Below are positions 10,301-47,956 of a stretch of 64,000 bases of DNA, piece after piece. Source of the stretch: Vulcanimicrobiota bacterium. GTDB lineage: Bacteria > Vulcanimicrobiota > Vulcanimicrobiia > Eremiobacterales > Eremiobacteraceae. Within the stretch, counting starts at the first letter, position 1; every line of letters starts with the position of its first letter. The stretch is from assembly GCA_963806005.1 (NCBI GenBank), contig CAWDWJ010000008.1, positions 276,531 to 340,530 of the forward strand, in the 5' to 3' direction. The translations under genes and the position numbers were made by a program. The notes under the pieces were generated by a model, which made no database searches, was not told where the DNA came from, and saw only the letters and a program-made list of their open reading frames with translations.

Positions 10301-10355
10301 CGGGCGACGACCGTCATCGAGGTCGCCATGCGACCGCTCGCGTAGTGGGAGTCAG

Positions 10356-14081: not shown

Positions 14082-14157
14082 GGGGATGTAGCTCAGCTGG
14101 TAGAGCGCTTGCTTCGCATGTAAGAGGCCAGGGGTTCGAGTCCCCTCATCTCCACCA
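14082..14157 (+). tRNA. tRNA-Ala (anticodon CGC), CCA encoded
   Basis: Folded by hand into a 76-nt cloverleaf: acceptor GGGGATG/CATCTCC with the G3:U70 alanine identity pair, D arm GCTC/GAGC, anticodon stem CTTGC/GTAAG, loop TTCGCAT, T arm AGGGG-TTCGAGT-CCCCT. Confidence 0.95.
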
Positions 14158-14195
14158 CAGTCGCGCCTACGGCTAACAATCCTTGGCAGCACGCA

Positions 14196-14852
14196 TTACA
14201 GGATCGTCTCCGTGAGTGGCCCCCAGTTCCCCATGTTCTTTGAGGAACCGATAAGCATCTCAACTGGCCATTTCGATCCGGAAAGTACAAATCCGGTCGC
14301 ACGAGTATAACCCTCCATCAGTACGATGTCCCCGCCGACTCGGACTGCCACTGGCATTGCGTACTTTTTCCCTTGCTGGTAGTCGCGTGCAACGCTGCGA
14401 ACGTTTGCGACCAATTCATGTAACCTTTTAGTCTCTGACTGGGAGAGGCCGTAATTGGACGAGATCGATCCGATATCGTTACGGGCAATGGCGTCAACGG
14501 CCACCGATATCAACTGCGTGTATCGACTTACTTGGATCCATTCGATGATTTTTGCGTAACGCAAGTTCTTGAGCGGCTCGGGCGACAATGAGTACCGCAC
14601 CCACAGTGTGTCATACGGGAATCCCTTGAAGAACCTTGTATTCGGATAACCGCGATAATGTCCAAGCACTGCTGCACGGACGGCATTTTGTTTGACATCG
14701 TTCGGATCACCGTTGTCGATGAGGTCCTCGCGCGTGGAATTTTTTGAAGCGAGGGCGCCAGCAACATGAGATCCAAAACGCGGCGAGTCGACCTCCGCTC
14801 GCAGGAACTCCAGCACCATTTCGTCGGCCGTGGCGGGAGCAATCAATTGCAT
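14196..14852 (-). CDS. hypothetical protein (module 1 cargo)
   Basis: 218-aa ORF in a visibly lower-G+C stretch right next to the tRNA. No family recognised, and no tyrosine- or serine-recombinase motifs. Confidence 0.6.
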   Translation of the reverse strand: MQLIAPATADEMVLEFLRAEVDSPRFGSHVAGALASKNSTREDLIDNGDPNDVKQNAVRAAVLGHYRGYPNTRFFKGFPYDTLWVRYSLSPEPLKNLRYAKIIEWIQVSRYTQLISVAVDAIARNDIGSISSNYGLSQSETKRLHELVANVRSVARDYQQGKKYAMPVAVRVGGDIVLMEGYTRATGFVLSGSKWPVEMLIGSSKNMGNWGPLTETIL

Positions 14853-14975
14853 ACTTTAGGACCATCTATTTCTTGTCCAACATACTTCAGGACCGCGTTT
14901 TGCGTTGACCTGCCGATCAGTATTAGCAAACCGGACCAACATGAACGTCGCGCCCATTCTCCTAGCGCGAGTCAA

Positions 14976-15986
14976 CTAGTATGTCACCTGAACCAAGAAC
15001 TCTCCGCTCCACTTGGTTTCAAGGTTAGCGTTACCCCAGGCGCTCTGTCCGACATACATGTCTGTGATTTGCCAGTCTGCAGGGTCTGTATCCATCATCC
15101 CACCGGGAGAGCCCCCACTGATGAGAGCTCTTAAGCGCGGGGCGATGTTAATGCCATCCATCGTAATTGAGTCCCCTGGATTGAGGAGACTATGTCCATA
15201 GCTGGTGATGGGGTCACCAATACAGTACGGATTTGTGAGTTGGCAAAAGAATTCACCACGAGAGCCAGTGTAACAGCCTGCCCCCGTGTCGGTGCCTGGA
15301 TAGCATTCTGAACCGAGTTCCAGTTGGTAAAAAAGGGTTTGGCCTCTTGCGGAGCTGAGAATGAGAGACGCTATGACCTGACTTTGATTGACCCCGCATT
15401 CAACGCTCGATGCGGATTGGGATGCTGCTACCAATGTCACGGTTCCTTGGAAGTTAATGGCTGTAATCTCTTTTAAAGTAGGGTCGACTCCCGGATAAAT
15501 AGCACTCGGGTTTGTCCGGACGAAAGTTGGGTCGTTTGGCTGAAGAAAGAAATCAAACTCTTGGAAGTGGCCGCAGTCAGTTGTTGCGGTTTGACCCAAG
15601 GTAGTTGAAATCCATGCTCCTGTAGTGGGATTACGTTCAAAAGACACTGACATTGGATCATAGGCCATTGCCAAAGTGGATGAGGTGTATAGTTCCTCAG
15701 TCGTCGAAGGATTTGTAATGCTAAAGGGCTTCCAAATTACTCCGTCCTGCTGGCCCCACGATAGGACATTCCAATTAGCTCCACCGCCCGTTGAATATGC
15801 GACTTGAAAAGGGGGCTGGGTTTCAAGGAGAGCAAAGTTGTTTGTGGCCAAGAATGGTTCTACAGTGCAGTTTGTGCAATCCGTTACCAGAGGCGGTGCT
15901 GGAGTCTGCGGCGGACCTGGGATGACGCCGTGGCCACAGGCGACCAGAACCGTCCCTGCTACTAACGCGATGATAAACCGGTACAT
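14976..15986 (-). CDS. hypothetical Cys-rich lipoprotein (module 1 cargo)
   Basis: Start MYRFIIALVAGTVLVAC (lipobox; CAT at 15984-15986; RBS GGGAGGG 4-5 nt upstream). About 10 Cys in the mature part. No family recognised. Confidence 0.65.
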   Translation of the reverse strand: MYRFIIALVAGTVLVACGHGVIPGPPQTPAPPLVTDCTNCTVEPFLATNNFALLETQPPFQVAYSTGGGANWNVLSWGQQDGVIWKPFSITNPSTTEELYTSSTLAMAYDPMSVSFERNPTTGAWISTTLGQTATTDCGHFQEFDFFLQPNDPTFVRTNPSAIYPGVDPTLKEITAINFQGTVTLVAASQSASSVECGVNQSQVIASLILSSARGQTLFYQLELGSECYPGTDTGAGCYTGSRGEFFCQLTNPYCIGDPITSYGHSLLNPGDSITMDGINIAPRLRALISGGSPGGMMDTDPADWQITDMYVGQSAWGNANLETKWSGEFLVQVTY

Positions 15987-16156
15987 ATGCCCTCCCTTGA
16001 GCCCAGCGGCGTACCGCGCCAAGCGCTACCCGCCATCGGATCAGCCCAATCGTAACCACCAGCGGTAAACGCATCGTAAAATTCAAATCTTTGTACCGCC
16101 TGGCGTGACACGGACATCAACTCTCAAAGCGAAGCCTTGTGGGAGCACCCCATACC

Positions 16157-16221
16157 TGCATCAGGTTCTTGAAGTTAATTCGCATGTAAGAGGCCAGGGG
16201 TTCGAGTCCCCTCATCTCCAC
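16157..16221 (+). repeat. att-like repeat A: tRNA-Ala 3' half (16179-16221) with only about 22 bp of the conserved arm
   Basis: 43/43 identity to tRNA positions 14113-14155. The arm is limited to the CATCAGG..TTAA-proximal part; no heptamer block. Confidence 0.85.
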
Positions 16222-16242
16222 TCTTGGGTTGCGCTTTCGAGT

Positions 16243-19037
16243 CTAGACCTTGAGTGCTTCTTCGACCGCCTGATCTTCCGACCACGCCGCACCTTCGGCC
16301 GCGAGCTTTTCTATCTCCGCTTCGCTCAGCTGATCGCGCAGTGCGGCCATGAGCTTCTCGTGGCCCCACTTCTCCGTGGGCTCACGCTCATACCCACTTC
16401 TTTGTAGTTGCACATCGACGTAGCCGATGAGGCGCGCCGCATCGTGCATGATCTCCGCGCAGCGCCAAGAGCAGCGCAAAATGCTGCAACGCGATCGCGA
16501 TGCCGAGTGCATTTTGCGCTTGCCGCGCCCAGCGCAGACCCTCGCGATGCGGCCTCACGCGCTCCATCGACGTCTCCCAGCGCAATGCGATAGGCAGCGA
16601 TGTTGTATGTAGCTCACCGCCAAGATCGACGCGTTCTTACCACGCGCGTCAGATCTCTAGGGCCTCGCCTGCCAAGCGTAGTGCCTGCTCAACCTGCCCA
16701 TCGGCGAACTCCAACTCCGCGAGATTTCCCAGCACCACAGCTGTGCCCTGCCTCGTTTCCCAGCGCCTTGTACGCTGCAAGCGCCTGCGCATACAACTCG
16801 CGCCCGCGACGACATCGCCGCGAGCCCGCTGGATGCCCGCTCTGCGGATCAGGCAGTCAGCCACTCCCGGTTTATCTCCGTAACTCGCGCATCGCCGCAA
16901 GCGCGCGTGCGTTCACTCACTGGCCTCTTCAAACGGCCCATTTGAAAAAGACCGAAGCGCAAGAATGCAGCGCCCAGGCCTGCCCCATGCTCGTCGCCCA
17001 CCGACTGGTAGAGCGCGAGGGCGCGTTGCAGCGCAGTCGTGCTTGCGCTTGCCGGAGGAAATCTGGCTAAGCGCACGCCACAGCCGGGCCGCCACGTGCG
17101 GGTGGCATCGATTCATCAAGGCTCGCTTGTGCGCAGGCTCGATCCAATAGCGCCCCTCCACCGTGAGTCCGCCACGCAGCCATAGCATCTGCCAGCGCTC
17201 CGGCCACGGCACCACCCAGCGCCACATCGTGTCCGTCTTTGAGCGACCACTCCAACACGGCGCGGTAGTTGTCCAGTTCCCGTTCCACGCTCGCCAGCCA
17301 CGCCGCGGTCGAGCCTGTGCCGAAGCGTCTTATCGGCCTCTTGCGCCTGATCGCGAAAGTACTCGGCGTGACGGCGAGCCAGCTGTTCGCGCTGCGCCAG
17401 CTGCTGTCAGCTTCTCCAGCGCATAGGCGCGCGTGGATTCGAGCAAATGGTAGCGTTCTTGCTCGCCTGCGGTGTCGGCCACGACCAACGACTTGTCGGT
17501 CAGCGATGAGAGCAGGTCTAAGATGTCGATCTCATCGAGGTCCTCGCCGCTGCACACCGCCGTGGCCGCATCCAGACTGAAGCCTCCGGCGAAGATACCC
17601 ACCCGATTGAACAGCATCTGCTCCTGCGGGGTGAGCAGGTCGTAGCTCCAGTCGATGAGCGCGCCGAGCGTCTTCTGCCGCGGGAGTGCCGTGCGGCTCC
17701 CGCCGGTGAGAATCTTGAAGCGTTCGTTGAGCCGTTGGGCGAGGTTCGGGATGCTAAAGACCTTCACCCGAGCGCGGCAAGTTCGATGGCCAGCGGAATA
17801 CCATCCAGACGGCGGCATATGTCGGCGACAATCGGTGCGTTGTCGTCGGTCGAGCGCAAAGGACTTGTCAACCGACCGCGCCCGATCGACAAACAGCGCC
17901 ACCGCGCCAAATTCCATGATCGCTGCCGGCGTGAGATCGGCAATCTTATGCGGCACGTCGAGTGAGGGAAGCCGCAAGTACCTCTTCGCCACTCACCCCA
18001 GCGCCTGGCGTGACGTGGCAAGCAGGCTGCACATCAGGGCAACTGCGGATGATCTGCGTTGGCGATCGCGGCGACAGCTTCCAAGACATGCTCGCAGTTA
18101 TCCAAGATCAGCAGCAGCTTCTTGCGGCTCAGCCACTGCGGAATGGACTCGTCAATTCTGCGGCCCTCGACTTGGGGCATGCCCAATCTCTTTGGCGATA
18201 ACGCTTGAGACGAGTTCGGGGTCGGTGATCGGGCGCAAAGTCGACAAGCCACACGCCATCGGGATTGTGGTCGAGGACTTCGGCTCCCACTTGCAGCGCT
18301 AGCCGCGTCTTGCCGACGCCGCCGGAACCAAAGAGCGTCAGCAGCTTATGCTGACTCAGCAGAGACTTCACTTCTTCAAGGTCGTGCTCGCGACCGCGAA
18401 AGCTCGTCGGCTGAATGGGAAGGTTGTTCGGAATCGTATCGAGTGACTTGAGCGGCGGAAACTCTGCTGGCAGACCTTCGATGGTCAGCTGCCAGACTTG
18501 TTCGGGTTCGGTGAGGTCCTTGAGCCGGTGCGAGCCGAGATCAACCAGCGATGCGCCGGCGGGAAGATCGCTATGGGCTAGTTCGCGGGTGGAACCCGAC
18601 AAGAGAATCTGGCCGCCGTGGCCGATGGACATGAGTCGTGCCACTCGGTTGACGGCCGGTCCGAAGTAGTCGCCGTTACGCTCCGAAGCCTCGCCGGCAT
18701 GCAGCCCGATGCGTACTCGCAAGCCGCCAACTGCAGAAAAATCTTCTTCGCTCAAGGCCCGTTGCGCTTCGAACGCAGCCGCGACAGCATCCGAGACGCG
18801 GGCGAAAGCGACGCAAAACGCGTCGCCAATGGTCTTGAACACGTACCCGTCGTGTTGATCGATCGCATCGCGCTCAAAAGCGCATCATGGCGCTTCACCG
18901 CGTCATCCATCGCCTCGCGCTGCGATCTCCCAACGCTGCGTGGAGCCCTCAATGTCGGTAAAGAGAAACGTGACCGTGCCAGTAGGCAAAGAGACGGGGG
19001 CATTTGCCGCTGGGACTGCCCCCTGGGGGTTGGACAT
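16243..19037 (-). pseudogene. cyclase-STAND(NB-ARC-like)-TPR gene, decayed copy 1
   Basis: Homologous pieces lie in at least five different frame segments: N-terminus MSNPQGAVPAANAPVSLPTGTVTFLFTDIEGSTQRWE from 19037; FKTIGDAFCVAF...GSGGVGKTR in 18129-18842; LLLILDNCEH in 18034-18252; DICRRLDGIPLAIELAA in 17764-18021; C-terminus ...AAWSEDQAVEEALKV ending at 16243. Confidence 0.85.
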
Positions 19038-19192
19038 AGGCGTTGTATTCTGCTGGGGTGCTATTTGCGCCTACCCAACCATGCCGGGCATTGGGGCCAC
19101 ATCGGGCTGGCTCCGACTCATCACGTGAGGCCGTAAAGCTGGCTGAATCTGCGTGCCCGCAAGTTGCGTCCGCGTCACTCCAGTGAGTCTAA

Positions 19193-19365
19193 GCGCACGG
19201 CATATCGTACGGCAATCCCGCCATACCACCAGCAACATTCTGCAACTCCCTGCAACATTCTGCAACATGCGAACGCGCGTGTCATCTGGCGGAGCCTTAT
19301 TTCATCATGGTCCTGCAATTAGTTCGCATGTAAGAGGCCAGGGGTTCGAGTCCCCTCATCTCCAC
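19193..19365 (+). repeat. att-like repeat B: conserved arm (19193-19322) + tRNA-Ala 3' half (19323-19365)
   Basis: Core 43/43 identical to the tRNA. The arm carries GTACGGCAAT and four heptamers at 10-bp spacing (19230-19266). Confidence 0.9.
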
Positions 19366-19544
19366 AAACCTTCGCTACGCGAATTCACATGCTCGTTTGG
19401 ACTTCCCAACATCAGAGCGAGACTCATGCCAAATCGTTGTTGATTGCCGGCGACCCAACTTGTGGTCGAAATTCAGCCCCCGAAAGCGATGCAACGTGCG
19501 TCACGCCTAAGAAACGCCGGACGCTTGCGCTGGCCGCGTTACTT

Positions 19545-20015
19545 CTATTGCTTGATGAAGTTTACCGTGAACGGTGCAACGCCGCTTACCTGAAAGATCG
19601 TACCGCCCTTGGCCGTGACCCAGTGACGGACAAGGGCCGGAATAACAACGTAAGAACCTGGTCCGAGAGCGGTTGTCTTGGACCGATCCATCTTGTCGCC
19701 AACGCCGAACATTACCGTGCCGCTTAGAATGGTAAGGCGCTCGGTATCTGGATGCCAGTGCAATGGTATTGTATACCCATCGGGTAGCTTCAGCCGCATC
19801 GTGTACGGTGATCCGGTCTTTTTAGGATCACCATCCATTATCGCAACCTGTACGCTGGGCAGTATCTTAGATGGCATCCATTTTATGTCAACCGGTGTCA
19901 CCATCTTTGCGGCATTGGCGACACCCGACATCCCCGTTGTATTTGCCAAGGCAATCATACCCAAGCTCATGGCAATTACCGTGGACAGAAACGCTGCAAA
20001 AACCAACTTCTGCAT
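19545..20015 (-). CDS. secreted cupin-domain protein (module 3 cargo)
   Basis: Signal peptide MQKLVFAAFLSTVIAMSLG; cupin motif PLHWHPDTERLTILSGTV. Close paralog at 34712-35182. Confidence 0.8.
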   Translation of the reverse strand: MQKLVFAAFLSTVIAMSLGMIALANTTGMSGVANAAKMVTPVDIKWMPSKILPSVQVAIMDGDPKKTGSPYTMRLKLPDGYTIPLHWHPDTERLTILSGTVMFGVGDKMDRSKTTALGPGSYVVIPALVRHWVTAKGGTIFQVSGVAPFTVNFIKQ

Positions 20016-20080
20016 GATACCCTTCCCGTCGCGGTTGGCAGTTTAATCTATGCCGTTCAAACTCACAATACCGATGAACC

Positions 20081-20254
20081 GTACGGCACTCGTACGGCAA
20101 TCCCGCCTTAACACCAGCAACTTTCTGCACATCACAGCAACTTTCTGCAACGGACTAACGTAGAAGCTGCCCGGCGAACCACGATTTCATCAGAGTCTTG
20201 TGTTTAATTCGCATGTGAGAGGCCAGGGGTTCGAGTCCCCCTCATCTCCACCAC
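20081..20254 (+). repeat. att-like repeat C: arm (20081-20207) + tRNA-Ala 3' half (20208-20254)
   Basis: Core differs from the tRNA by one substitution (GTAAGA to GTGAGA) and one extra C in the T stem; identity runs through CCACCAC. The arm has a duplicated CGTACGGCA and the heptamer block. Confidence 0.85.
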
Positions 20255-20317
20255 GGCTCGTCTATCAATGTGCGCCACTATGCAACATGTGAGCGCGGCC
20301 TTGCCTCCACGTTCGCC

Positions 20318-23111
20318 TTAGACCTTGAGCGCTTCTTCGACCGCCTGATCTTCCGACCACGCCGCACCTTCGGCCGCGAGCTTTTCTATCTCGGCGTCCC
20401 TCAGATGCTCGCGCAGTGCGGTCATAAGTTTCTCGTAGCCCCACTTCTCGGTGGCCTCACGTTCCTACCCGAGTTCTTTGTATTGCATATTGACGTAGCC
20501 GATGAGCCGCGCCGCATTGTGCAGTTCGCCGCGCAGCGCCTAGAGCAGCGCGAAATGTTGCAACGCGATCGCGATGCAATATGCAGTTTGTGCTTGTCGC
20601 GCCAAGCGCAGCCCCTCGCGGGCAGCTTCACGCGCTCCATCGCACATCTCCCAGCGCAATGCGATAGGCAGCGATGTTGAGGTAACCAATCGCCAAGTTC
20701 GTCGCGTTCTTCCCACGCGCCAAGATCTCCAGGGCCTCGCCTGTCAGGCGCAGCGCCTGCTCGACCTGACCATCTCGCGAACTCCAGCTCCGCAAGATTT
20801 GCCAGCACCATAGCTGTTCCGGCCTCATTTCCCAGGGCCTTGAATGCGCCGCGAGCGCCTGCGCATACAACTCGCGCGCCGCGACAACATCGCCGCGATC
20901 CCACTGGATGAGCGCCTGCTGACTCAGGCAGTCGGCCACTCCCGGCTTATTCCCCAACGTGCGCATCGCCGCAAGCGCCCGTGTGTTCGCTTCGCTGGCC
21001 TCTTCAAGGTGGCCCATTTGAAAGAGACCAACGCCAGATAGTGTAAAGCGCCCAAGCCGCCCCATCTTGTCGCCTACCGATTCGTATAGCGCGAGGGCGC
21101 GTTGCGCATAGTCGTGCTTGCTCTTGCCCATGGAAAGCGTGGCTGATGCCCGCCACAGCCGGGCCGCTACCTGCGGGTGCACCGATTCGTCAAGGCCAAC
21201 TTGCGCAAGGTCGATCCAATAGCGTCCTTCGGCCGTGAGTCCGCCATCTCGCCAGAGCCGCTCCAGCGCTCCAGCCAGGGCACCACCCAACGCCATATCG
21301 TGTCCATCTTTAAGTGTCCATTCCAGTACGGCGCGGTAGTTGTCCAGTTCCACTTCCGAGTCGCCAGCCACGCCGCCAGTCGATCCCGCTGCCGAAGCGC
21401 TGGTCCGCCCCCTGCGCCTGATCGCGAAAATACTCTCGCGTGGCGGCGAGCCAGCGGTTCTCGTTCGCATGCCGCCATAAGCTTATCCAAAGCATATGCT
21501 CGAGTGCATTCCAGCAAACGGTAGCGTTCCTGCTCGCCTGTCGTGTCGGCCACAACCAGCGACTTGTCGGTCAGTGATGAGAGCAAGTCTAAAATGTCGA
21601 TGTCATCGATGCCCGTCGCCAGCTGCACACCGCCGTGGCCGCATCCAGGCCGAAGCCCCCGGCAAAGATGCCCAAACGGTTGAAGAGCATCTGCTCTTGC
21701 GCGGTGAGCAGGTCGTAACTCCAGTCGATGAGCGCACTCAGCGTCTTCTGACGCGGCAGCGCAGCACGGCTACCGCCGGTGAGGATCTTGAAGCGTTCGT
21801 TGAGCCGCTGGGCGAGCTTCGGGATGCTCAGAATCTTCACCCGAGCGGCTGCCAGTTCGATCGCTAGCGGAATACCATCCAGACGGCGGACAGATTTCAG
21901 CGACGATCGGGTGCATTGTCGTCGGTTAGAACGAAGCGGGTGTCGGATGCGATCGCTCGATCGACAAAGAGTGCGATCGCGCCATAGGCGGATGCTGTTT
22001 CTGCGGAAAGTCCCGCCAGTTGGTTCGGGCAGCGAAAGCGATGGCAAACGGTAGGTAAACACTCGCCACCGATGCCTAGCGCCTGACGTGACGTGGCGAG
22101 GATGCGCACCTTGGCCGCGGTGCTAAGAATCGCTGTGGCAAGTCCGGCCACAGCATCGATCAAGTGCTCGCAGTTGTCGAGAATCAGCAATAGGTGCTTG
22201 CGTTTCAGCCACTGCGGGATAGCCTCCGCAATTTTGCGTCCCCGCTGTTTGGGTGATGCCCACCACTTTGGCGATCAAGCTTGCGACAAGCTCGGGATCG
22301 GTGATTGGAGCCAGATCGACGAACCACGCGCCATCTGGGATACTCGTCTAGCGAGGTCGGCGGCGACTTGCACGGCAACCGCGTCTTGCCAATACCGCCT
22401 GCGCCGGATAGCGTCAGCAGACGGTGTTCACCGATCAATGACTTGACCTCCTCAAGGTCGCGCTCGCGACCGCGGAAGGTCGTGAGGTGTATCGGCAGGT
22501 TATTCGGCGACGCATCGAGTGATCGCAGCGCCGGAAATTCTTGCTGCAGGCCAGCGCCGCTCAGCTGCCATACATGCTCGGGCTCGGCGAGGTCTTTGAG
22601 GCGATGCAAGCCGAGATCGGTGAGCGCGACATCCGCCGGCGAGTCGCTGCGCACTAACTCGCGGCTCGCTCCAGAGACTAAGATCTGCCCTCCATTGCCT
22701 ATGGACAGCAAGCGCGCAACGCGGTTAACGGCTGGGCCGAAGTAATCGCCATCGCGCTCGTCGGCCGTTCCGGTGTGGATCGCCATCCGCACGCTGATGC
22801 CATTGACGCTTGAGAAATCCTCGGCTTTCAAGCGCTCGCTGTGCATCGAGTGCAGCCGCAATAGTATCTTCGGGCCGTCGGAACGCAACACAAAAAGCGT
22901 CGCCGACCGTTTTGAAAACAAACCCATGATGATGTTCGGTTGCCGTTCGCATAAGCGCATCATGGCGCGCGACTGCAACCTTCATCGCCTCGCGCTGGGT
23001 CTCCCAACGTTGCGTCGAGCCCGTGATATCCGTAAACAGAAACGTGACCGTGCCAGTAGGTAAAGTTACGAACTTCTTGGATTTCTCTTTCGCCCCACTC
23101 GCGCGTGGCAT
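20318..23111 (-). pseudogene. cyclase-STAND(NB-ARC-like)-TPR gene, decayed copy 2
   Basis: N-terminus MPRASGAKEKSKKFVTLPTGTVTFLFTDITGSTQRWE at 23111. Homologous pieces are spread over ORFs 22725-23111, 22205-22978, 21897-22190, 21589-22062, 21167-21628, 20628-21470 and 20422-20904. There is also an in-frame TAG at 20465-20467 where copy 1 has TAT. Confidence 0.85.
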
Positions 23112-23336
23112 GAGGGTCAGGGTTCGGCTGTGTGGAGGTCGAGCCCTAGTCTATGGAGCCGGCGCCGGGCTAGGCGGAGCGACTAAGACCCTGTTCTGCT
23201 TACCAAAAACGCGGAGGCACCGCGTGAGGGTCTCGGCTCGACATGAACATCATTATCCATATTTGAATCTTCGAGACGCCAGGGCCCAATTGGGAGAGCA
23301 GGGCGGATGATTTCTGTACCAGCAGTACTAACTCGG

Positions 23337-23509
23337 GCGCACGGCATATCGTACGGCAATCCTACCTAAACACCAGCAACTTTCTGCACATTACTGCAAC
23401 ACTCTGCAACATGCGAACGCCCGTGCTAGGTGAAAAAGCTCGGTTTCATCAGGGCCGCGTAATTAATTCGCATGTAAGAGGCCAGGGGTTCGAGTCCCCT
23501 CATCTCCAC
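23337..23509 (+). repeat. att-like repeat D: arm (23337-23466) + tRNA-Ala 3' half (23467-23509)
   Basis: Core 43/43 identical to the tRNA; arm collinear with B, E, F and G. Confidence 0.9.
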
Positions 23510-23567
23510 ACTCAAGATTTTGCAGCTGTGTCGATTCTGTTGGCGCTAGTAGACCTCAAAATTCTTC

Positions 23568-23687
23568 TCAGACCTTCAGCGCTTCTTCGACCGCCTGATC
23601 TTCCGACCACGCCGCAACTTCTCTCGCAAGCTTTGCGAATTCAGCGTCTCTGAGCTTCTCCCGCAGCTGGGCCATCAACTTGACCGC
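23568..23687 (-). pseudogene. orphan 3' tail (last ~39 codons) of a former cyclase-STAND gene
   Basis: Encodes AVKLMAQLREKLRDAEFAKLAREVAAWSEDQAVEEALKV-stop, collinear with the C-termini of copies 1 and 2. Lies out of frame behind and under the end of the intact gene 23641-26460. Confidence 0.75.
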
Positions 23688-26460: not shown

Positions 26461-26630
26461 TGTTCGACTTCGCGTTTCTGCGGATGGAGGCCTAGTAGAC
26501 CCCACGCCTAGGCAGGGCGCACAACGCACAGGACACCCGTAAGGCCACGCAGGTAATCGTGTAATGCTCTTCTAGGCAGCTATTCAAATTGGGCTTGAGA
26601 GCTGGCGCGCTCGTGGCCGGAGCGTTCTAC

Positions 26631-26800
26631 GCGCACGGCATTTGTACGGCAATCCCGCCCCAACACCAGCAACTCTCTGCAACTTACTGCAACATTCTGC
26701 AACGTGCGAACACAGATGCTATCTGGCGGAGCTCGATTTCATCAGGGTCCGGGAATTGATTCGCATGTAAGAGGCCAGGAGTTCGAGTCCCCTCATCCCC
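26631..26800 (+). repeat. att-like repeat E: arm (26631-26759) + degenerate tRNA-Ala 3' half (26760-26800)
   Basis: Core has CAGGGG to CAGGAG and CATCTCC to CATCCCC changes, then diverges. Arm is intact with four heptamers. Confidence 0.85.
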
Positions 26801-26902
26801 GTCATCCCAAGCCTTTGTGACGATAAGTTCTCGCGCTGCGCTCAATGCGAACTTGTTTTGCTATAGTGAGCTTAGTGTAGGTGGAGTTGGTATCCACTAC
26901 CA

Positions 26903-27376
26903 CTAGCGCGTCCACGAGCTCTCCCAGACGCGGGAGAGCAGTCGTTTGAGCTGGGAGAAATCCTTGGGCCCAAGCTCAGCGCTCCATTCGTGCTCTATGT
27001 CGCCGAGGATATCGTGGACCCTTGAGTATGCGGCGCGTCCACGCTTGGTAAAGCGGACAATTCGCGCGCGGCCTTCGTTCGGCGCGTTGGACCGGGTAAT
27101 ATATCCGAGATCTTCGAGGCTCCGAAGTAGTTGGTTCATGGCTTGTTTGCTCATACCGGCCCGCTCGGCGAGCGTGCCCGGACGAACTCCATCCGGACCA
27201 GGAAATTGCAGCACCGCCATATGCGGCACACGCAGCTCTGCGAATCCTGCGGCGTTGAGCTCGCTGATAATGCGGCGGTGTATCGCCTGGGCGGGCACGC
27301 GCAGCAAAGCCCCGATAAGCATATCCTTTGCATTGAGCGATGGACTCAATGCTGCTGGATCCTTGATGGAACCCAT
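26903..27376 (-). CDS. MarR-family transcriptional regulator (module 6 cargo)
   Basis: Winged-helix pattern GVRPGTLAERAGMSKQAMNQLLRSLEDLGYITR. Confidence 0.85.
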   Translation of the reverse strand: MGSIKDPAALSPSLNAKDMLIGALLRVPAQAIHRRIISELNAAGFAELRVPHMAVLQFPGPDGVRPGTLAERAGMSKQAMNQLLRSLEDLGYITRSNAPNEGRARIVRFTKRGRAAYSRVHDILGDIEHEWSAELGPKDFSQLKRLLSRVWESSWTR

Positions 27377-27382
27377 TCGGGG

Positions 27383-27865
27383 CTATGCTTGAGGATGTGG
27401 CGGAGCCGGCGTGAGGCCGTGGCGGAGCATGATCTCGGTCATCTTCGCTCGGTCTGGCGGCCCCCCGGCCGCTGCCTTAATCACGTCGGCGCTTTCGCGG
27501 AAATACTGCGGGCCCAGTACGGCCGGCGTGATAACGCAGAGAGCCTTTACGTCCTGACTGCCATTGTTGTCGAACCGGTGAATGGCGCCGCGCGGAATGC
27601 AGAGCGCCTGGCCCGGCCCGACGTCGATCTGCTCTCCGTCAACGGTCCAGGTCAGCACCCCACTAATACCATAGATCGTTTCCTCGTAGTGGTCGTGGCT
27701 ATGCGCGGGGGCCTCCAGACGTTGCGATCCCGGGACAAAGAGCTCGAAGGCTGCGACGCTGCCATTCGAGTTGTCCCTGGTGAGCAAGAAGCGCACCGTG
27801 AGCGGTCCGAGGCTAATGGTTTCGTCGGAAGGATTGATCTGGAGGTCGATGGTCTGCTGCGTCAT
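27383..27865 (-). CDS. cupin-domain protein (module 6 cargo)
   Basis: AHSHDHYEETIYGISGVL and IPRGAIHRF cupin motifs. 6-nt gap to marR, so a probable operon. Confidence 0.8.
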   Translation of the reverse strand: MTQQTIDLQINPSDETISLGPLTVRFLLTRDNSNGSVAAFELFVPGSQRLEAPAHSHDHYEETIYGISGVLTWTVDGEQIDVGPGQALCIPRGAIHRFDNNGSQDVKALCVITPAVLGPQYFRESADVIKAAAGGPPDRAKMTEIMLRHGLTPAPPHPQA

Positions 27866-28012
27866 GGGCGTTTCTCCTTCTGGTAAATTTACTTTACTTG
27901 ATTATTGTAAACGCCATTTACTAAAATGTCAAGACTCAAGGGTGGACCCGACTATCCCAGGGCTTCCGCGAAGTGAAAGCTTGCCTCGAACTTGGGAGCT
28001 GCGGACGGCTAG

Positions 28013-28184
28013 CCGTACTGCAATTGTACGGCAATTGCTCCGTAACACCAGCAACGTTCTGCAACTTACTGCAACATTCTGCAACGAGCGCACGCCCGTG
28101 CTATCTGAAAAAGCTCGATTTCATCAAGGTCGCGTAATTGATTCGCATGTAAGAGGCCAGGGGTTCGAGTCCCCTCATCTCCAC
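28013..28184 (+). repeat. att-like repeat F: arm (28013-28141) + tRNA-Ala 3' half (28142-28184)
   Basis: Core 43/43 identical to the tRNA; arm contains GCAATTGTACGGCAATTGC and the heptamer block. Confidence 0.9.
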
Positions 28185-28610
28185 AAATTGAACTTGTATC
28201 ACCGGCGCAGATTGGTCAGCAAACGGTCAGCAACCTAGGCTCGAGCGAGCACGTTGGTTTTCGGAGCCCTTGGCTTATTGGGTTCGTTGCCCTGTGGAAA
28301 ATGCTGACTTCTACATGGTCCATGTTAGTGCAAGTCGATGACCATGCTGAGTTCTCGCTTAGGCTCTCGCGGCGATCTGGCTGCGCAAATGAGAACTATT
28401 GCAGAACTGGCAGGCCAACTTCCCGCTTCCAACCCCGCCGCTGACCTCTACAGCCTCCATTAGCGCAGACATCCACGTCTCAATTATAGCCCTAGAGTGT
28501 TCAGCGCCTCATCGAATCGGACACCGCCCTGGCGCCAATTCACAATCAAGCCCTTGATGATTGCATCGGGTAAACGTCCAATGCCGATTGCCCTCATCGA
28601 CTCGGTGTGC

Positions 28611-29261
28611 TCAGAACCCGTCGCCCGGCATTTGTTGCCAGCACCATTGCGCGTAAATGGCCTTTGGAGCGACAACCGGTCCGCGCACTTCGTCCGAAAT
28701 GGTGTCGACATACTCAATCGGGGTATGGTTTATCATGGCAAAATGGCTTGGGTCGCATACGGTACGCCGATATCTGATAAATGAGACGGCGCTTTCCACG
28801 TGGACGATCGTCGGAATATCGTTGAGCTGCGCGGTCATCGTCAAATCTCGTCTGTCCATGATGGACAGTATCACAGATCCTTGGCGTTGCGATAGAGCGA
28901 TCCCGGCTAACGATCCGATCGGCGCGACGATCCTGAGTGCAAACCTCGGATTCAGCCAATGATACTCGACACTGGTCACCTCGCCCTGGCAGGTCGGTTC
29001 GTTGAAGTTGATGTTAATCAGACCTGCCCGAGTTTCACCTAGATAGCTGCCACTGACCCCCTCCTTCCAAATTTTCACGGGCGCTTCACCGGCGATGGCA
29101 GCGATGGTCGACTGAACCGCTTGTTCGCACTCAACGCTCACCGGCTCAGCGTCACGCATCGTTGTGTTCGGAGAGATGGATGGCCCATACGGCCCAGAGC
29201 CGGCCGTCAGGGCAAGCGACACGAGAACGACGAGGATTAACAATGGGAGCGCATGCTTCAC
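28611..29261 (-). CDS. hypothetical secreted protein (module 7 cargo)
   Basis: Signal peptide MKHALPLLILVVLVSLALTAG. No family recognised. Lower-G+C stretch. Confidence 0.6.
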   Translation of the reverse strand: MKHALPLLILVVLVSLALTAGSGPYGPSISPNTTMRDAEPVSVECEQAVQSTIAAIAGEAPVKIWKEGVSGSYLGETRAGLININFNEPTCQGEVTSVEYHWLNPRFALRIVAPIGSLAGIALSQRQGSVILSIMDRRDLTMTAQLNDIPTIVHVESAVSFIRYRRTVCDPSHFAMINHTPIEYVDTISDEVRGPVVAPKAIYAQWCWQQMPGDGF

Positions 29262-29314
29262 GGGTCGCCATTTCGTTTCCGACCACGTGGTTTGCCTCCC
29301 GCGGCTGAGCTAAC

Positions 29315-31600
29315 CTACGCGACTCCGTCGCTGCGCTTTTCAATAAACAACTGCCGGAAGACAGTGACCTTCAAGAAATCTAGTGGCACCAACAACACAG
29401 CGACCCCCACGAAAAGCGCGAGCACAATAGACAACGGCAGCGGCGCCATGGCAACGCCATAGACCGCCAAGACAGAGACAGCCACAATGTCGGCAAGTGT
29501 GGTAAACAGCACCCATCGGCTGGGGCGCGATGCGTAAAGATGATCGCGCTCTCTAACCAAATAGATCGTGGCCTGTCCCGTGTATATCATCGCCAGAAAC
29601 GTTAGTGTTTGCAGCCGTGGCAGGTCGAGCGCCCATTCGCGCTTGCCAACGAAGTACGCCACAAGGGTGAAAGCCGTCCACGCGAGCGCAAGAGGCAGAG
29701 CGCCTGCAAGCAGAGTTGGTATGTTCCAACGGTTGGGGGTACGGGAAATGCGCACGCGATCCTTGGCTAATGACAACGTGACGAAGTCGTTGGCGAAGAG
29801 CATGAATATCATGAGTCGCGGAGTCAAGAGCATAACACCGCCGAGAAAGAAGAACCCAGATGACAACAGCAAGGCCGCGTGGAGCGCCTTCACCATTTTG
29901 TTCAGTGTCCACGTCAACAGGCGTTGAAAGACGGCCCGCCCGGTATCAACAGCGCTGACAGTACCAGCAAGCCCGGGCTCAGTCAGCACCAGACCTGCGG
30001 CGGACTTGGCAATGTCCGTTGCCGAAGCAACTGCCACGCCCACATCTGCTTGGCGTAAGGATGGGGCGTCGTTGACACCGTCGCCGGTCATGCCAACGAC
30101 ATGTGCGTCGCGCTGCAGCGCTTTGATAATCCGCAGTTTGTCTTCCGGATAGATGCCTGCATCAAACTCGTGAATATCGAGCTGGGCCGCGACTGTTCGT
30201 GCGGTCGCTTCCGTATCCCCCGTCAACATGCGCACGTCGATGCCGCGCTCTCGAAGGTTGCGAACAACTGAGTTTGCATCAGCGCGTACAGTGTCGGAAA
30301 AAGCGACCAGTCCGGCCAGCTGCAATTTTTCGCCCGATCCAGCCGCAACCGCCAGGATCCGCGCTCCGGACGAAGCGAGGCGTGTAACATCAGCCTCGAT
30401 GTCGCGTTCAGGGGCAGCCAACTGAGCAACTATCGTTGGAGCGCCTTTGACGATTGTGAGGACGCCCTGAGTAGTCCGGACTTGAGCCTGCGATCGCTTC
30501 GTTAGAGGGTCGAATGGCTGAAAGTCCACCCGTGTGCCGAGCGAACGGCCCGTGCCTGCAACGTCGAGAATGGCGATGTCAAATGGGTCCCGCGTGCCTG
30601 GGTCACATGCGCAGGCAGCAAGCGCAGAAACGTCCTCCGCAGCGTACGGCGGATATGCCACGATTTCGCACACGCGAAGGCGGTTCTCTGTGATGGTCCC
30701 CGTTTTGTCAGTGCACAATTCATCCATTGTCGCAGCCTGGTCGACCGCCGATAGCCGTGTGACAAGCACGCCTTTGTTGGCAAGGTCGAGGGCCGCGAGC
30801 GCAGTCGTTAACGTAAAGACGGCAGGAAGCGCGACCGGCACGGCTGTGACAAGTAAGATGAGCACAAAAGGGAACATCGCAGCCAACGGCAACCCTTTTG
30901 CCGCGGCGTATGCGAATAGCGCTCCGACCAGCACGGCATCGAAGAGCACCAAATACCGGACGACCGCGGAGACAACCGCATCCATTTGTCGTGGTTCCGT
31001 GGCTTCATGAACCAGCTCTGCGGTTTTCCCAAAGCGCGTCGACATGCCCGTTGCGACAACCGTGCCCGCCGCCTCGCCGCGGGTCACTATCGATCCCGAG
31101 TACACGGGGTCCCCAGCGGCGCGCTCGAGCGGAATCGATTCACCCGTCAGCGCCGACTGGTCGACGGTCATGTTGCCGCTGAAGATTTCCGCGTCTGCGG
31201 GAACAAAGTCACCCATTCGCAGGTACACGGCGTCGCCCGGCACAATCGCCTCGGCTCCAATCGATTGCCATTGACCATCGCGCAGAACGCGCGCGGTGAC
31301 CTGCAACCGCCGGCGGAGCAGCTCGAGTGCTCGCTGCGCCCGATCTTCCTGCGAAAAGCTCAAAAAGGCGTTGAATACCAGAAGTGCGGCTATGATCGCG
31401 CTTTCCAGCGGCCTGCGGCGCAAGACCTCAAGGATGATGCTCGCCTCAAGCATCCACGGTACCGGACCCCAAAGCTTAAGCGCGAACCTAATAAGAGGCG
31501 TGGAAGGGGGTCGCGGTATTTCGTTTGAGCCAAACCTATTGAGGCGATCAAGCGCTTCACTTTTGGTCAAACCTTGGTTCTGCTGCGGCGCAAGGTGCAT
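29315..31600 (-). CDS. cation-translocating P-type ATPase, type IIIA (H+-ATPase)-like (module 7 cargo)
   Basis: Phosphorylation motif CTDKTGTITENRL, hinge GMTGDGVNDAPSLRQADVGVAV, N-terminal GLTKSEALDRLNRFGSNEI. The subtype is judged only from motif resemblance. Confidence 0.8.
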   Translation of the reverse strand: MHLAPQQNQGLTKSEALDRLNRFGSNEIPRPPSTPLIRFALKLWGPVPWMLEASIILEVLRRRPLESAIIAALLVFNAFLSFSQEDRAQRALELLRRRLQVTARVLRDGQWQSIGAEAIVPGDAVYLRMGDFVPADAEIFSGNMTVDQSALTGESIPLERAAGDPVYSGSIVTRGEAAGTVVATGMSTRFGKTAELVHEATEPRQMDAVVSAVVRYLVLFDAVLVGALFAYAAAKGLPLAAMFPFVLILLVTAVPVALPAVFTLTTALAALDLANKGVLVTRLSAVDQAATMDELCTDKTGTITENRLRVCEIVAYPPYAAEDVSALAACACDPGTRDPFDIAILDVAGTGRSLGTRVDFQPFDPLTKRSQAQVRTTQGVLTIVKGAPTIVAQLAAPERDIEADVTRLASSGARILAVAAGSGEKLQLAGLVAFSDTVRADANSVVRNLRERGIDVRMLTGDTEATARTVAAQLDIHEFDAGIYPEDKLRIIKALQRDAHVVGMTGDGVNDAPSLRQADVGVAVASATDIAKSAAGLVLTEPGLAGTVSAVDTGRAVFQRLLTWTLNKMVKALHAALLLSSGFFFLGGVMLLTPRLMIFMLFANDFVTLSLAKDRVRISRTPNRWNIPTLLAGALPLALAWTAFTLVAYFVGKREWALDLPRLQTLTFLAMIYTGQATIYLVRERDHLYASRPSRWVLFTTLADIVAVSVLAVYGVAMAPLPLSIVLALFVGVAVLLVPLDFLKVTVFRQLFIEKRSDGVA

Positions 31601-31919
31601 GAGCGTTATCTGGCCCGCGAAGTCAGATCCGTCGTGGAATTCTCCTCGCTAAGCCTGCCGGACGTCCTCGAGATGTTCGCGTTCAAGCGCTTACGTGTGC
31701 GCGGGGCGTAGAGACAAGCACGTTAGCAACTCCCGGTATAGATTACGCTCATACACGGCACTGTCGCGATCACTAGCGATCAGGTGTGCGCGGATAAGGA
31801 ATTTTCGCGGCATGTCATCCAACGGGTCACCTTCAATCATTTCTCTCGCAAGAGCGCCAGCGACCGGAGCATCACCTCTTTTTAGCGCATCGTCAGCCAA
31901 TCAACGCTCAGCGTCCCTT

Positions 31920-32810
31920 CTAGTGCCTCCCAGCCGCGCGAGCTGGCACTGATCGCAGGTATCTGATCAGTGCGGCAATCTCGATATCCGTCATCTGCGC
32001 GGTGTACGGCCACGGCATGAAAGTACTTATGGTCGTGGCGTCTGGCCGCTTACCCACCCGCAACGCACGTACGATCTCCGCATCGCTCCATCGGCCGATG
32101 CCGGTCGGCGTGATATTCTGAGCCTTTGGATAATCAGGCGGCACGCCTGGAATCGGTCCACCCGAGAGGCCCGCACCGTGGCAGCCAATGCAGCCGCCGA
32201 CCTGCGCCATGTAATGGCCATACTCAACGGTGACTGCCGGCGGCATTGTGGCAACGTGCGCCATCGAATGATCAATCACGGAAGCAGCCGGCGGTGGCAA
32301 TAAGCCAGCTCCCAACAAGATGCGGCCGAGGGGACGGACGTCGGACGCAGGTAGCTGACTATTTTCCGGCGGTACGCTTTTCACATAGGCGATGATGTCC
32401 GCGAGATCAGCATCTGAAAGGTGGGAGAAGGCGTCCGACGGCATCACCAGCAGCGCACGACCGTCCGGCGCGACACCATCGCGAATCGCGCGCGCGAGGT
32501 CCGCATCGCTCAAGCTCGAGCCGATTCCTCCCGCGCCACGCGTCAGGTTCGGCGCCACAATCCGAAATGGCGGCACATCGAGAAAGACCTTGCCGCTTAA
32601 ACCTGCGCTATGACAGTCGGAGCATTTCGCAATAGCGAATGCAAGATGCCGGCCGCGCGCAATACTTGCCGCGTCGGTCGGAACGGTGAGCGTCTCCGCG
32701 GCGACGGAATAGGTCCTATTAAGCTTCGCGCTGCCTACAAGGTACAACGCGCCGACGACGACGATGACAAGAACAACGAGGGCGAGAATTATCCGCAATA
32801 CCCACCGCAT
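31920..32810 (-). CDS. membrane-anchored dihaem cytochrome c (module 7 cargo)
   Basis: N-terminal TM helix and two CxxCH motifs (CSDCH, CIGCH). Confidence 0.8.
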   Translation of the reverse strand: MRWVLRIILALVVLVIVVVGALYLVGSAKLNRTYSVAAETLTVPTDAASIARGRHLAFAIAKCSDCHSAGLSGKVFLDVPPFRIVAPNLTRGAGGIGSSLSDADLARAIRDGVAPDGRALLVMPSDAFSHLSDADLADIIAYVKSVPPENSQLPASDVRPLGRILLGAGLLPPPAASVIDHSMAHVATMPPAVTVEYGHYMAQVGGCIGCHGAGLSGGPIPGVPPDYPKAQNITPTGIGRWSDAEIVRALRVGKRPDATTISTFMPWPYTAQMTDIEIAALIRYLRSVPARAAGRH

Positions 32811-32989
32811 CGAGAGCCCTCCGGTCGTCAGGGACGTTAGACGGTGTTCAGCGCCTTCCTGGCCGTTTGCGCGCTAATCCAAGTCAGGCTCTAACCAGAG
32901 GCGGTTTATTACGCTGGGCTTAGGATCGCAGGCGCGTCAGCTCGCGACCCGAACTGCTGGCAAGACATAGCCGGGCAGTAGTGCCTCGC

Positions 32990-33163
32990 GCACTGCAAAT
33001 TGTACGGCAATTGCTCCATCATACCAGCAACTTTCTGCAACTTACTGCAACACTCTGCAACAGGCAAACACCCGTGCTATCTAGCAAAGCTCGATTTCAT
33101 CAGGGTCCTGGAATTAGTTCGCATGTAAGAGGCCAGGGGTTCGAGTCCCCTCATCTCCACCAC
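32990..33163 (+). repeat. att-like repeat G: arm (32990-33117) + tRNA-Ala 3' half (33118-33163)
   Basis: Core identical to the tRNA through CCACCAC (46 bp). Heptamer block at 33025-33061. Confidence 0.9.
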
Positions 33164-33199
33164 GCGTATTGCATGACAGGCATGTAGCGATCAGACCAT

Positions 33200-34633: not shown

Positions 34634-34711
34634 GACGGTGCGCTCTTTTTGGGTTTCAAATATCGTCGGTCCGCACTCTCACCGTACATGTTGCGCCCGC
34701 CGTGTCACTTC

Positions 34712-35182
34712 TCATTGCTTGATGAAGTTTACTGTGAACGGTGCAACGCCGCTTACCTGAAAGATCGTACCGCCCTTGGCCGTTACCCAGTGACGTACAT
34801 AGGCCGGAATGACGACGTAAGAACCTGGTCCGAGTGCGGTTGTCTTGGACCGATCCATCGTGTCGCCAACGCCGAACATAACTGTGCCGCTCAAAATGGT
34901 AAGGCGCTCAGTATCTGGATGCCAGTGCAATGGTATTGTATACCCATCGGGTAACTTCAGGCGCATCGTGTACGGTGATCCGGCCTTCTTAGGATCGCCA
35001 TCCATTATCGCAACCTGTACGTTCGGCAGCTGCTTAGATGGCATCCATTTTATGTCATTTGGTGTCACCATCTTTGCGGCATTGGCCTGACCTGAGATCT
35101 CCGTCGTACTTGCCAAAGCAATCGTAAACAGGCTCATCGTAATTACCGCGGCCAGAAACACCGCAAACACTAACTTCTGCAT
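34712..35182 (-). CDS. secreted cupin-domain protein, paralog of 19545-20015
   Basis: Start MQKLVFAVFLAAVITMSLF (CAT at 35180-35182). Near-collinear with the module 3 cupin, including its 5' leader. Confidence 0.8.
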   Translation of the reverse strand: MQKLVFAVFLAAVITMSLFTIALASTTEISGQANAAKMVTPNDIKWMPSKQLPNVQVAIMDGDPKKAGSPYTMRLKLPDGYTIPLHWHPDTERLTILSGTVMFGVGDTMDRSKTTALGPGSYVVIPAYVRHWVTAKGGTIFQVSGVAPFTVNFIKQ

Positions 35183-35243
35183 GATACCCTCCCTGTCGCG
35201 GTTGGCGGTGGGGTCTAGGTTCACACGCACAATACCGATGAAC

Positions 35244-35282
35244 CGTGCGGCAATCCCGCCATAACACCAGCAACTTCTGCAG
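35244..35282 (+). repeat. truncated arm remnant H (no tRNA core)
   Basis: CGTGCGGCAATCCCGCCATAACACCAGCAACTTCTGCAG matches the gene-proximal start of arms B-G, then breaks off inside the heptamer block. Confidence 0.6.
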
Positions 35283-35503
35283 ATTTATACGGGCGTGATA
35301 CATCCGTACGGGGAAACCCTGTAACAAAACACAAGATAGCTGAGTGGAACTCGCACCGCCTGTCGATACGGTCGCTCGCAAGCCAGATCTTGTGTTATTT
35401 TCGGAGCTGGCGCCGCCGGCGTCGGCAATCTTCCGGTTACACTGGCCACTCCAGATCCGACTGGTAAAGACCACCTTAAGGCGTACCCTAGAAAGGCAAT
35501 GAC

Positions 35504-36187: not shown

Positions 36188-36303
36188 AGGCGATACACAT
36201 CCCGGGTCCCGTACCGGACGTGGAAAGGCCATTCTAGGCGTTCGCTGCTCTCTAAAAGAAGCCGTTCTTGTTAGCATCTTTCGCAAACCTGAGAGGACTC
36301 ACG

Positions 36304-37227: not shown

Positions 37228-37322
37228 GCTCTCCTAAGAGCTCACCTCCCCCTACGCCCCTAGTCCTGCGTCCTGAGAAGTTGGGGTTCGATTCCCTCTC
37301 CACTCGAAAAATAAGTCTGATA

Positions 37323-47944: not shown

Positions 47945-47956
47945 CGGGCGCGCCGC

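Follow-up and report, generated by a model that had tools for sequence, protein, structure and literature searches.

Within a 64,000-nucleotide stretch of DNA from an uncultured soil bacterium of the Candidatus Eremiobacterota, also called Vulcanimicrobiota (GenBank assembly GCA_963806005.1, contig CAWDWJ010000008.1, positions 276,531 to 340,530; hereafter 'the window'), the sole tRNA gene, an intact tRNA-Ala(CGC), is followed by an array of compact, integrase-less gene cassettes that are separated from one another by copies of the 3' half of that tRNA. The feature is real and is mobile at the level of the single cassette; the mechanism of its movement is partly inferred. The anatomy of the repeats, the absence of a recombinase gene in the vicinity, the existence of an empty site in a relative, the passage of whole cassettes from one genome to another and the variation of cassette order among genomes are all directly observed. 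On balance, it appears probable that the array is composed of non-autonomous integrative cassettes that are moved in trans by a recombinase encoded elsewhere.

The attachment core of these cassettes corresponds to the portion of the tRNA gene (located at 14082-14157 on the forward strand, as identified by ARAGORN and by an Rfam tRNA score of 69.4 bits) that extends from the anticodon loop to the 3' end, at 14113-14158. Running from the base that opens the anticodon loop as far as the discriminator, the segment is 42-43 nt in length (TTCGCATG...CTCCA(C) or, in its full form, TTCGCATGTAAGAGGCCAGGGGTTCGAGTCCCCTCATCTCCA(C)), and it recurs downstream of the tRNA in seven copies, all in direct orientation, that begin at 16179, 19323, 20208, 23467, 26760, 28142 and 33118; a preliminary description of this DNA had given the same coordinates and copy numbers, which were rechecked by sequence matching and are right. 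Five of the copies (at 16179, 19323, 23467, 28142 and 33118) are free of mismatches, with the match at 33118 running on through CCAC to approximately 46 nt, while the copy at 20208 displays one substitution and one inserted C, and that at 26760 displays three substitutions; the corresponding number of matches expected in shuffled sequence is 0.00. Counted from the core within the tRNA gene itself, the successive start-to-start distances are 2066, 3144, 885, 3259, 3293, 1382 and 4976 nt. A comparison of 14 units from eight genomes demonstrated that each matches the tRNA from precisely the first anticodon-loop base through to the 3' end, with the bases that precede the core being TTAA, TTAG or TTGA in the units and TTGC in the tRNA itself. 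Sublocation at the anticodon loop is said, after Williams in 2002, to be the classic and typical choice of tyrosine integrases that target tRNA genes.

Six of the seven core copies (the exception being that at 16179) are preceded by a conserved arm of approximately 130 nt, such that the complete repeat unit spans approximately 175 nt. An alignment of twelve arm and core units from five genomes revealed an ordered series of invariant blocks within the arm: CG(C/T)AC(G/T)GCA and (C/T)GTACGG(C/G)AA; then ACCAGCAAC, CTGCA(A/C)..,.TGCAAC and TCTGCAAC, which together constitute four GCAAC-type boxes at a spacing of 10 bp; and finally C..AC and TTTCAT.A, the last blocks before the core. Reduced to its motifs, the arm thus contains two copies of CGYACGGCA and four of (C/T)(A/T)GCAAC (CTGCAAC-type) in 10-bp phase. 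Within the window these motifs are confined to the array, and they are kept between genomes in which flanking protein is 55-86% identical. Across the arm alone, sequence identity is 68-86% whether the arms compared come from the window array or from different genomes, and the arms do not cluster by host; these identities indicate that the window array was built up of cassettes with separate origins, and that local duplication did not produce it.

The arm looks like protein-binding DNA, because it displays no periodicity of the kind found in coding sequence, no RNA covariation, and no folding above that of shuffled sequence. An RNA gene was ruled out by the lack of any matching Rfam family (only weak tmRNA- and tRNA-like matches were returned, and these lay on the core) and by the absence of covariation in a fold of the arm and core alignment. 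A coding role, for which SSV-type integrases, interrupted as they are by their own attP, offer a precedent, was likewise set aside: one frame is open in ten of the twelve units, yet variable columns are distributed over the three codon positions as 27, 25 and 23, with no 3-nt periodicity. A role as a shared promoter was rejected after no consistent sigma-70-like site was found across the units. The folding of the unit as single-stranded DNA was no better than that of shuffled sequence (z = 0.09 for the forward strand and -0.36 for the reverse), inverted repeats of at least 8 nt were absent from two of the three units checked, and no dif-like 28-bp dyad (11-6-11) was found in the units checked, the core being, by inspection, an anticodon stem-loop. 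In the arm of the second cassette (M2; Table 1), an inverted copy of the putative crossover region was noted (ACATGCGAAC at 19265-19274, relative to GTTCGCATGT at the start of the core at 19322-19331, 47 nt apart); its TGCGAAC portion is kept in most units (at alignment columns of about 88-97) and could represent a second, inverted core-type binding site.

Searches for the arm in other collections were of differing sensitivity. Exact IUPAC patterns of the arm produced no matches in GTDB genome contigs, the patterns being too strict, given that blastn found diverged arms in GTDB and JGI loci; a single exact-pattern match in a JGI metagenome (L002) was discarded as a chance match within a Gln-rich coding repeat. 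When the arm and core were compared by blastn with phages and plasmids, only the tRNA part was matched.

Additional loci further established that these units are a property of a lineage and that they move between its members. Arm and core units are found at the same tRNA, with the same upstream synteny, in loci L003 (GCA_036741695.1) to L008 (from NCBI and JGI), L011 (CAVXUM010000004.1), L012, L013 (CAVTNB010000001.1), L033, L039, L040 and L041. At least eight other Eremiobacterota genomes or contigs contain such units, with differing cargo that includes PDZ proteins, a TonB-dependent receptor, a LanC-like protein, RibD_C, an outer-membrane protein and cyclase/STAND proteins. In more distant relatives (L014, L016, L019-21 and L029-30) the tRNA is present and the units are absent. 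Between the tRNA and the neighbouring permease gene in L019-L021 there is instead an AbiEii/AbiEi toxin-antitoxin pair (about 10996-12406 in L019) with no arm and core, and there the hotspot may either have been used by something else or have had its site erased.

Among the key comparisons is that of L003 with L011, which share a 3156-bp block that is 99.4% identical between flanks that are 68-74% identical. The block opens within one core and runs to 5 nt past the next, with the arm at its right end included and the left arm excluded, and these boundaries indicate that the mobile unit reads, in order, rest of core, cargo, arm, core. A cassette encoding a protein of 320 or 324 residues (93% identical) is the first in the L003 array and the third in that of L011, and L003 and L004, which are 99.9% identical as far as a core, are unrelated from there on. 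L013 and L014 are 90-99% identical, yet differ from the last base of the tRNA onward, for 3.7 kb in the one and 0.8 kb in the other; the contrast between their upstream flank (89.8% identical) and their downstream flank, a beta-lactamase-fold gene (98.9%), suggests that a tract of recent recombination terminates at the tRNA hotspot. A stretch of L004 (15788-15856) that had been considered as a clean junction of the arm and TTCGCAT with foreign DNA proved, upon realignment, to be equally readable as a decayed core, and was not used to place the crossover point. The preliminary description had allowed that modules always accompanied by resident integrases in related genomes would tell against it; the relatives instead differ from one another cassette by cassette, and no integrase was found in approximately 15 loci.

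Several metagenome contigs from JGI and Logan (L022, L024 and L025-L028) end within the tRNA-Ala gene or 2 nt after its 3' end, which suggests a branching assembly graph and heterogeneity at the level of the population. The same behavior bears upon the concern that the array might be an artefact of assembly, in which single-module variants from different strains were chained across the shared repeat of 43-175 bp: the source is a 366.8-kb contig of a metagenome-assembled genome, and the exact breakage of many such contigs at the tRNA 3' end (L022, L024, L025) bespeaks a heterogeneous locus. Such an origin is nevertheless extremely improbable, in that (i) multi-unit arrays occur in independent projects and were produced by independent assemblers (L003-L007, L011, L041); (ii) over several units, L003, L005 and L007 are 99.98-100% identical to one another; (iii) the arms inside the window array differ mutually by 17-31%, and are unlikely to have collapsed or to have been mis-joined; and (iv) decay is graded along the array, which is a biological pattern. 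The recurrence of the same tRNA and the same architecture of arm and core in independent NCBI, ENA, JGI and Logan assemblies argues strongly in the same direction, and disposes of the artefact that the preliminary description had foreseen as a possible undoing of the array.

The preliminary description had also reported that no recombinase is encoded anywhere in the 64 kb, and profile searches bear this out. A Pfam scan of the 50 main open reading frames of the window returned no integrase, resolvase or transposase family, PF00589 included, and a scan of the other 140 reading frames of at least 110 codons returned no recombinase or transposase among the best 25 of 37 matched families (down to about E=2e-4). 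Nor was a recombinase gene found in the approximately 15 related loci, each of which was read over 10 kb to either side of the tRNA by means of gene tables, with Pfam scans for some. Cargo proteins that lack annotation were considered as hidden recombinases and rejected, with no match to Pfam, PHROGs, PADLOC or PDB sequences; this includes both proteins of the first cassette (M1), for the smaller of which, a 218-residue protein adjacent to the tRNA, the AlphaFold2 model was too poor to use (pLDDT 39). A 768-residue protein encoded past the last core of L033 was excluded in turn, as it combines a transposase-type helix-turn-helix with a PDZ-like body and has no catalytic domain; its gene (8624-10930) follows an isolated distal arm motif, ACGGCAAATCGTACGGCGAT, that lies just past that core (8590-8612), and its PDZ-like body is related to a neighbouring cassette protein. 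A further search that made use of the spurious reading frames translated from the arm yielded one more unit (L040) and no recombinase. Within the cassettes themselves the spacers are short (20-430 nt from core to the stop codon of the cargo, and 60-230 nt from the start of the cargo to the arm), and so leave no room for remnants of a recombinase.

These observations are also those by which a history of serial accretion must be judged, in which ordinary islands or prophages, each carrying an integrase, were inserted one after another and then lost every integrase and the remainder of their backbones, in the manner of cis-mobilizable elements (CIMEs). There is good documentation of tandem integration in which older elements are displaced inward and then decay until no integrase is left (10.1101/2020.12.28.424599; PMC5704250), and the distal cassettes of the window are clearly decaying. 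Against such a history, at least 20 cassettes in at least eight genomes contain no integrase, excisionase, replication, transfer or phage gene, nor fragments of these; cassettes are as small as 885 bp, with their cargo packed tightly between core and a conserved arm; and an intact, integrase-less cassette of 3.2 kb has moved recently between genomes, as indicated by the 99.4% identity of L003 and L011. That last comparison implies that the integrase-less form is itself the mobile unit, which renders decayed ordinary islands an unlikely source. What the preliminary description had regarded as the simpler alternative, islands that had lost their integrases, therefore fits the compact modules, the lack of recombinase fragments and the conserved arm poorly, and we consider it quite improbable.

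The cassettes that comprise the array (Table 1) range from 0.9 to 5 kb, with the smallest defined by the 885-nt spacing at M3. All cargo genes of M1 to M7 are encoded on the reverse strand, with their 5' ends toward their own arm, and nine of 11 distinct cassette types read toward the tRNA in the same manner. The M2 pseudogene produces tblastn matches across three frames, and the cassette is 81.6% identical at the nucleotide level to its counterpart in L011 and L003, relative to 72% in the flanks. The cyclase/NB-ARC/TPR family to which M2, M4 and M5 belong has expanded enormously within Eremiobacterota (7756 database proteins at E<=1e-100), and also includes chromosomal genes, such as that at 44225-47005 on the forward strand of the window; L043 and L044, which encode close homologues of the cyclase/STAND cassette protein, are chromosomal paralogues that lie outside any array, and host paralogues of this kind may be the raw material from which cassettes are made. 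Between the arm and the cupin/MarR operon of M6 is a near-consensus sigma-70-like promoter (27932-27904, reverse strand; TTGACA-17-TACAAT, 11 of 12 positions), which suggests that cassettes bring their own promoters.

The insertion extends well beyond the last complete unit. In L016, which represents an empty site, an ortholog of the amino-acid permease (72.7% identical at the nucleotide level) starts approximately 52 nt after the tRNA, and that locus and the window are collinear as far as 14157 and again from 38680; the adjacency of tRNA and permease in L016, together with this interruption, defines an insertion of approximately 24.4 kb (14158 to about 38600). The 3' end of the tRNA is precisely where collinearity with every relative breaks off, and a dip in GC content coincides with the insertion, with low GC continuing to about 38000. 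The extent that the preliminary description had assigned to the array (14082-33163) was consequently correct as to its repeats and too short at its far end, where decayed units, recognizable by the vestige of an arm (35244-35276) and by a core in decay (37283-37310), continue for approximately 5.4 kb to about 38.6 kb. Decay grows with distance from the tRNA. A portion of the distal cupin gene (34714-35013) is 94% identical over 300 nt to the corresponding portion of that in M3 (19547-19846), far above the similarity of their arms, which suggests that cassettes inside the array recently underwent duplication or gene conversion with one another. The SGL gene of the second decayed cassette is 87.6% identical to that of the single cassette of L012, which keeps its arm and core. 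The DUF899 family was matched by Pfam in the scan of window reading frames, and its assignment to the frame at 35504-36187 is based upon that frame being equal in length (227 residues) to the DUF899 gene of L014. Elsewhere in the window, an OPT oligopeptide transporter that is a single gene of 658 codons in L012 is split into two reading frames (47913-49082 and 49237-49956, reverse strand), and is probably either a frameshifted pseudogene or the result of a sequencing error.

Table 1. Cassettes, decayed units and right-hand boundary of the insertion downstream of tRNA-Ala(CGC), in window coordinates.
Feature	Coordinates	Strand	Cargo or gene	Arm	Core	Remarks
M1	14158..16221	(-)	218-aa protein 14196-14852; 348-aa secreted protein 14976-16022	only ~22 nt of proximal arm, vestigial	16179-16221	neither protein of assigned function; GC 0.52
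M2	16222..19365	(-)	adenylate-cyclase/STAND (NB-ARC)/TPR pseudogene	19193-19322	19323-19365	frameshifted
M3	19366..20251	(-)	one cupin gene 19545-20015	20078-20207	20208-20251	core degenerate
M4	20252..23509	(-)	pseudogene of the cyclase/STAND/TPR family of M2	23337-23466	23467-23509	at least 6 frame changes
M5	23510..26802	(-)	962-aa adenylate-cyclase/NB-ARC/TPR protein 23641-26529	26630-26759	26760-26802	gene intact; 3 core mismatches
M6	26803..28184	(-)	MarR regulator 26903-27376; cupin 27383-27865	28012-28141	28142-28184	
M7	28185..33163	(-)	216-aa unassigned protein 28611-29261; P-type ATPase 29315-31600; di-haem cytochrome c 31920-32810	32988-33117	33118-33163	
Decayed cassette	33164..35400	(-)	alpha/beta hydrolase 33200-34633; cupin 34712-35230	distal-arm remnant 35244-35276	lost	
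Decayed cassette	35401..37310	(+)	putative DUF899 gene 35504-36187; SGL/gluconolactonase-like gene 36268-37227		37283-37310, decayed	
Last inserted segment	37311..38600	(-)	~400-aa secreted protein, reading frame 37323-38654			no assigned function; no att remnant recognised
Amino-acid permease	38608..40320	(-)	permease gene			ancestral chromosomal neighbour of the tRNA; right edge of insertion

The favored explanation of the array, namely movement of non-autonomous cassettes in trans, would operate as follows. A circular cassette would consist of one recombination site (an arm and a copy of the tRNA from the anticodon loop to the 3' end) and one to three cargo genes, and a tyrosine-type recombinase, supplied by a helper element or from elsewhere in the chromosome, would join that site to the tRNA gene by a crossover in or near the 7-nt anticodon loop, TTCGCAT. 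The 3' half of the tRNA carried by the cassette would restore the gene, and the old 3' half would be displaced downstream, such that repeated insertion would stack the cassettes with the oldest and most decayed lying furthest from the tRNA. Recombination between the direct repeats would then excise cassettes, singly or in blocks, leading to their loss, their reshuffling and their horizontal spread among Eremiobacterota. The class of the enzyme, the position of the crossover, the circular intermediate and the direction of array growth are those elements of this scheme that we infer; the geometry of the site suggests a tyrosine integrase that acts together with arm-binding or accessory proteins.

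This scheme could take either of two forms. In the first, the integrase of a transient helper, such as an integrative and conjugative element (ICE) or a phage, may co-mobilize the cassettes, by analogy with CIMEs. The second, a possibility to which we assign a fairly low likelihood, envisages an independently evolved functional analogue of the integron that is anchored upon a tRNA and that employs a one-sided, double-stranded arm and core; a conserved chromosomal recombinase, encoded away from the array, would insert, excise and shuffle self-expressed cassettes at tRNA-Ala(CGC), and new cassettes would be made by the attachment of an arm and core to host genes, for example those of the expanded cyclase/STAND/TPR family.

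A number of points weigh against movement in trans by a dedicated recombinase. The conserved arm is present on one side of the core only, and a comparison of units revealed no conserved second arm to the right of the cores. Integrases of the lambda type normally need sites on both arms for integration, and the one-sided arm, which is unusual for a lambda-type attP, instead recalls the accessory sequences of cer and psi or the direct repeats of attI; the cassettes may accordingly be able to excise or to be co-mobilized, and not to integrate alone. Part of the array may be fixed and inactive, in view of the degenerate cores or arms at 16179, 20208 and 26760 and the state of the distal units. A recombinase was identified neither in the window nor in the approximately 15 related loci, leaving the central actor of the process to be deduced; no helper element was found at tRNA-Ala in any sampled locus; and two relaxed patterns of the arm, which were still too strict, produced no matches in IMG/VR. 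Finally, homologous recombination across the 175-bp repeats could yield some of the same comparative patterns.

The last of these points can be developed into an explanation in its own right, in which the arm and core are relics of an ancient integrative element that now serve as portable flanks of approximately 175 bp for RecA-dependent swaps after DNA uptake, with no dedicated recombinase active. The failure to find a recombinase in the window or in the approximately 15 loci would then be expected, many units are indeed degenerate, and 43-nt identical cores together with arms that are 70-86% alike suffice for some homologous exchange; the position of the ends of the L003 and L011 block within cores would also be expected of homologous recombination between one core and another. 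We nonetheless regard this explanation as unlikely, for several reasons: purifying selection upon phased arm motifs across divergence at the level of genus or family is hard to explain in this manner; a 43-bp exact core between arms that are approximately 20% divergent is a poor substrate for RecA; the fact that each unit has its left boundary strictly at the anticodon loop speaks for a site-specific origin; and the gain of an arm and core by unrelated new cargo is left without explanation.

Comparison with previously described systems places cassettes that are mobilized in trans near to several of them. Xer-dependent modules (the integrative mobile elements exploiting Xer, or IMEXs, and the pdif modules of Acinetobacter plasmids) are also non-autonomous, bounded by sites and moved by a recombinase that is encoded elsewhere, and the cer and psi resolution sites, like the unit described here, possess accessory sequence (about 180 bp) on one side of the core only. 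They differ in that the core in the present case comprises the anticodon stem-loop of a tRNA and what remains of its 3' half, and not a 28-bp dif-like 11-6-11 site. The term 'integron-like', which the preliminary description had applied to the array, holds as a functional analogy. As in integrons, small cassettes of mostly one or two genes, with one site each, are stacked at one chromosomal point, and they display cassette-by-cassette variation between genomes, repeated paralogous cassettes and strong co-orientation; arrays of integron cassettes without a nearby integrase are known as CALIN (PMC4889954), and the array described here likewise has no recombinase near it. The analogy does not extend to mechanism: intI is absent beside this array and beside those of relatives; there is no attC-type hairpin (z about 0), the site being instead a double-stranded, lambda-like arm with a tRNA-derived core; the point of attachment is a working tRNA gene and not attI; no common Pc promoter is evident; and the site lies upstream of most cargo, with cassettes that appear to carry their own promoters.

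The likeness to CIMEs, which are decayed ICEs or integrative and mobilizable elements (IMEs), is of a different kind. As exemplified by the case of ICESt1 and ICESt3 of Streptococcus thermophilus, with tandem accretion at tRNA genes or at the 3' ends of other genes (Pavlovic 2004, Bellanger 2011, reviewed in PMC5704250), these are modules flanked by att sites that lack integration and transfer genes, that are arranged one after another where a target gene has its 3' end, and that are mobilizable in principle by the recombinase of another element. However, a CIME is usually present as one per locus beside its helper, whereas the arrays considered here hold seven to ten compact cassettes of one to three genes with no helper in the sampled loci; the cassettes (at least 20) retain no remnants of an ICE or IME backbone, no full-length relative was found within a limited search space, and the cassette family has been conserved throughout a bacterial lineage at a single tRNA. 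Tycheposons (Hackl et al., 10.1101/2020.12.28.424599) and Islander-type islands (PMC4383910) share with the array the integration into and restoration of a tRNA, the displaced partial tRNAs that form direct repeats, the pushing inward of older elements and the niche-adaptive nature of their cargo, but possess their own integrase, often with replication genes, and typically span 10-20 kb, as opposed to units of 0.9-5 kb that contain neither. The array is thus neither an integron nor a member of the CIME family, though it works like integron cassettes or CIMEs, and no system of compact, integrase-less cassettes that each possess an arm and a tRNA half was found described in the open-access literature.

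Integrons are the textbook example of a chromosomal platform that stocks and exchanges single-gene cassettes, and integrase-less islets beside tRNA genes are usually dismissed as decayed islands. Here, compact integrase-less units with a structured and conserved site are the very units that distant genomes within an uncultured phylum from soil exchange, and as many as about ten of them are stacked at a single tRNA. Should the recombinase be found, the system would constitute a second and mechanistically different route to cassette plasticity (double-stranded, lambda-like and anchored upon a tRNA), would provide a concrete explanation for some of the 'orphan' islets associated with tRNA genes, and would furnish a new pair of att site and recombinase of possible use in genome engineering. 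For the Eremiobacterota themselves, whose mobile elements are almost undescribed, the array illustrates how genes may flow among their genomes.

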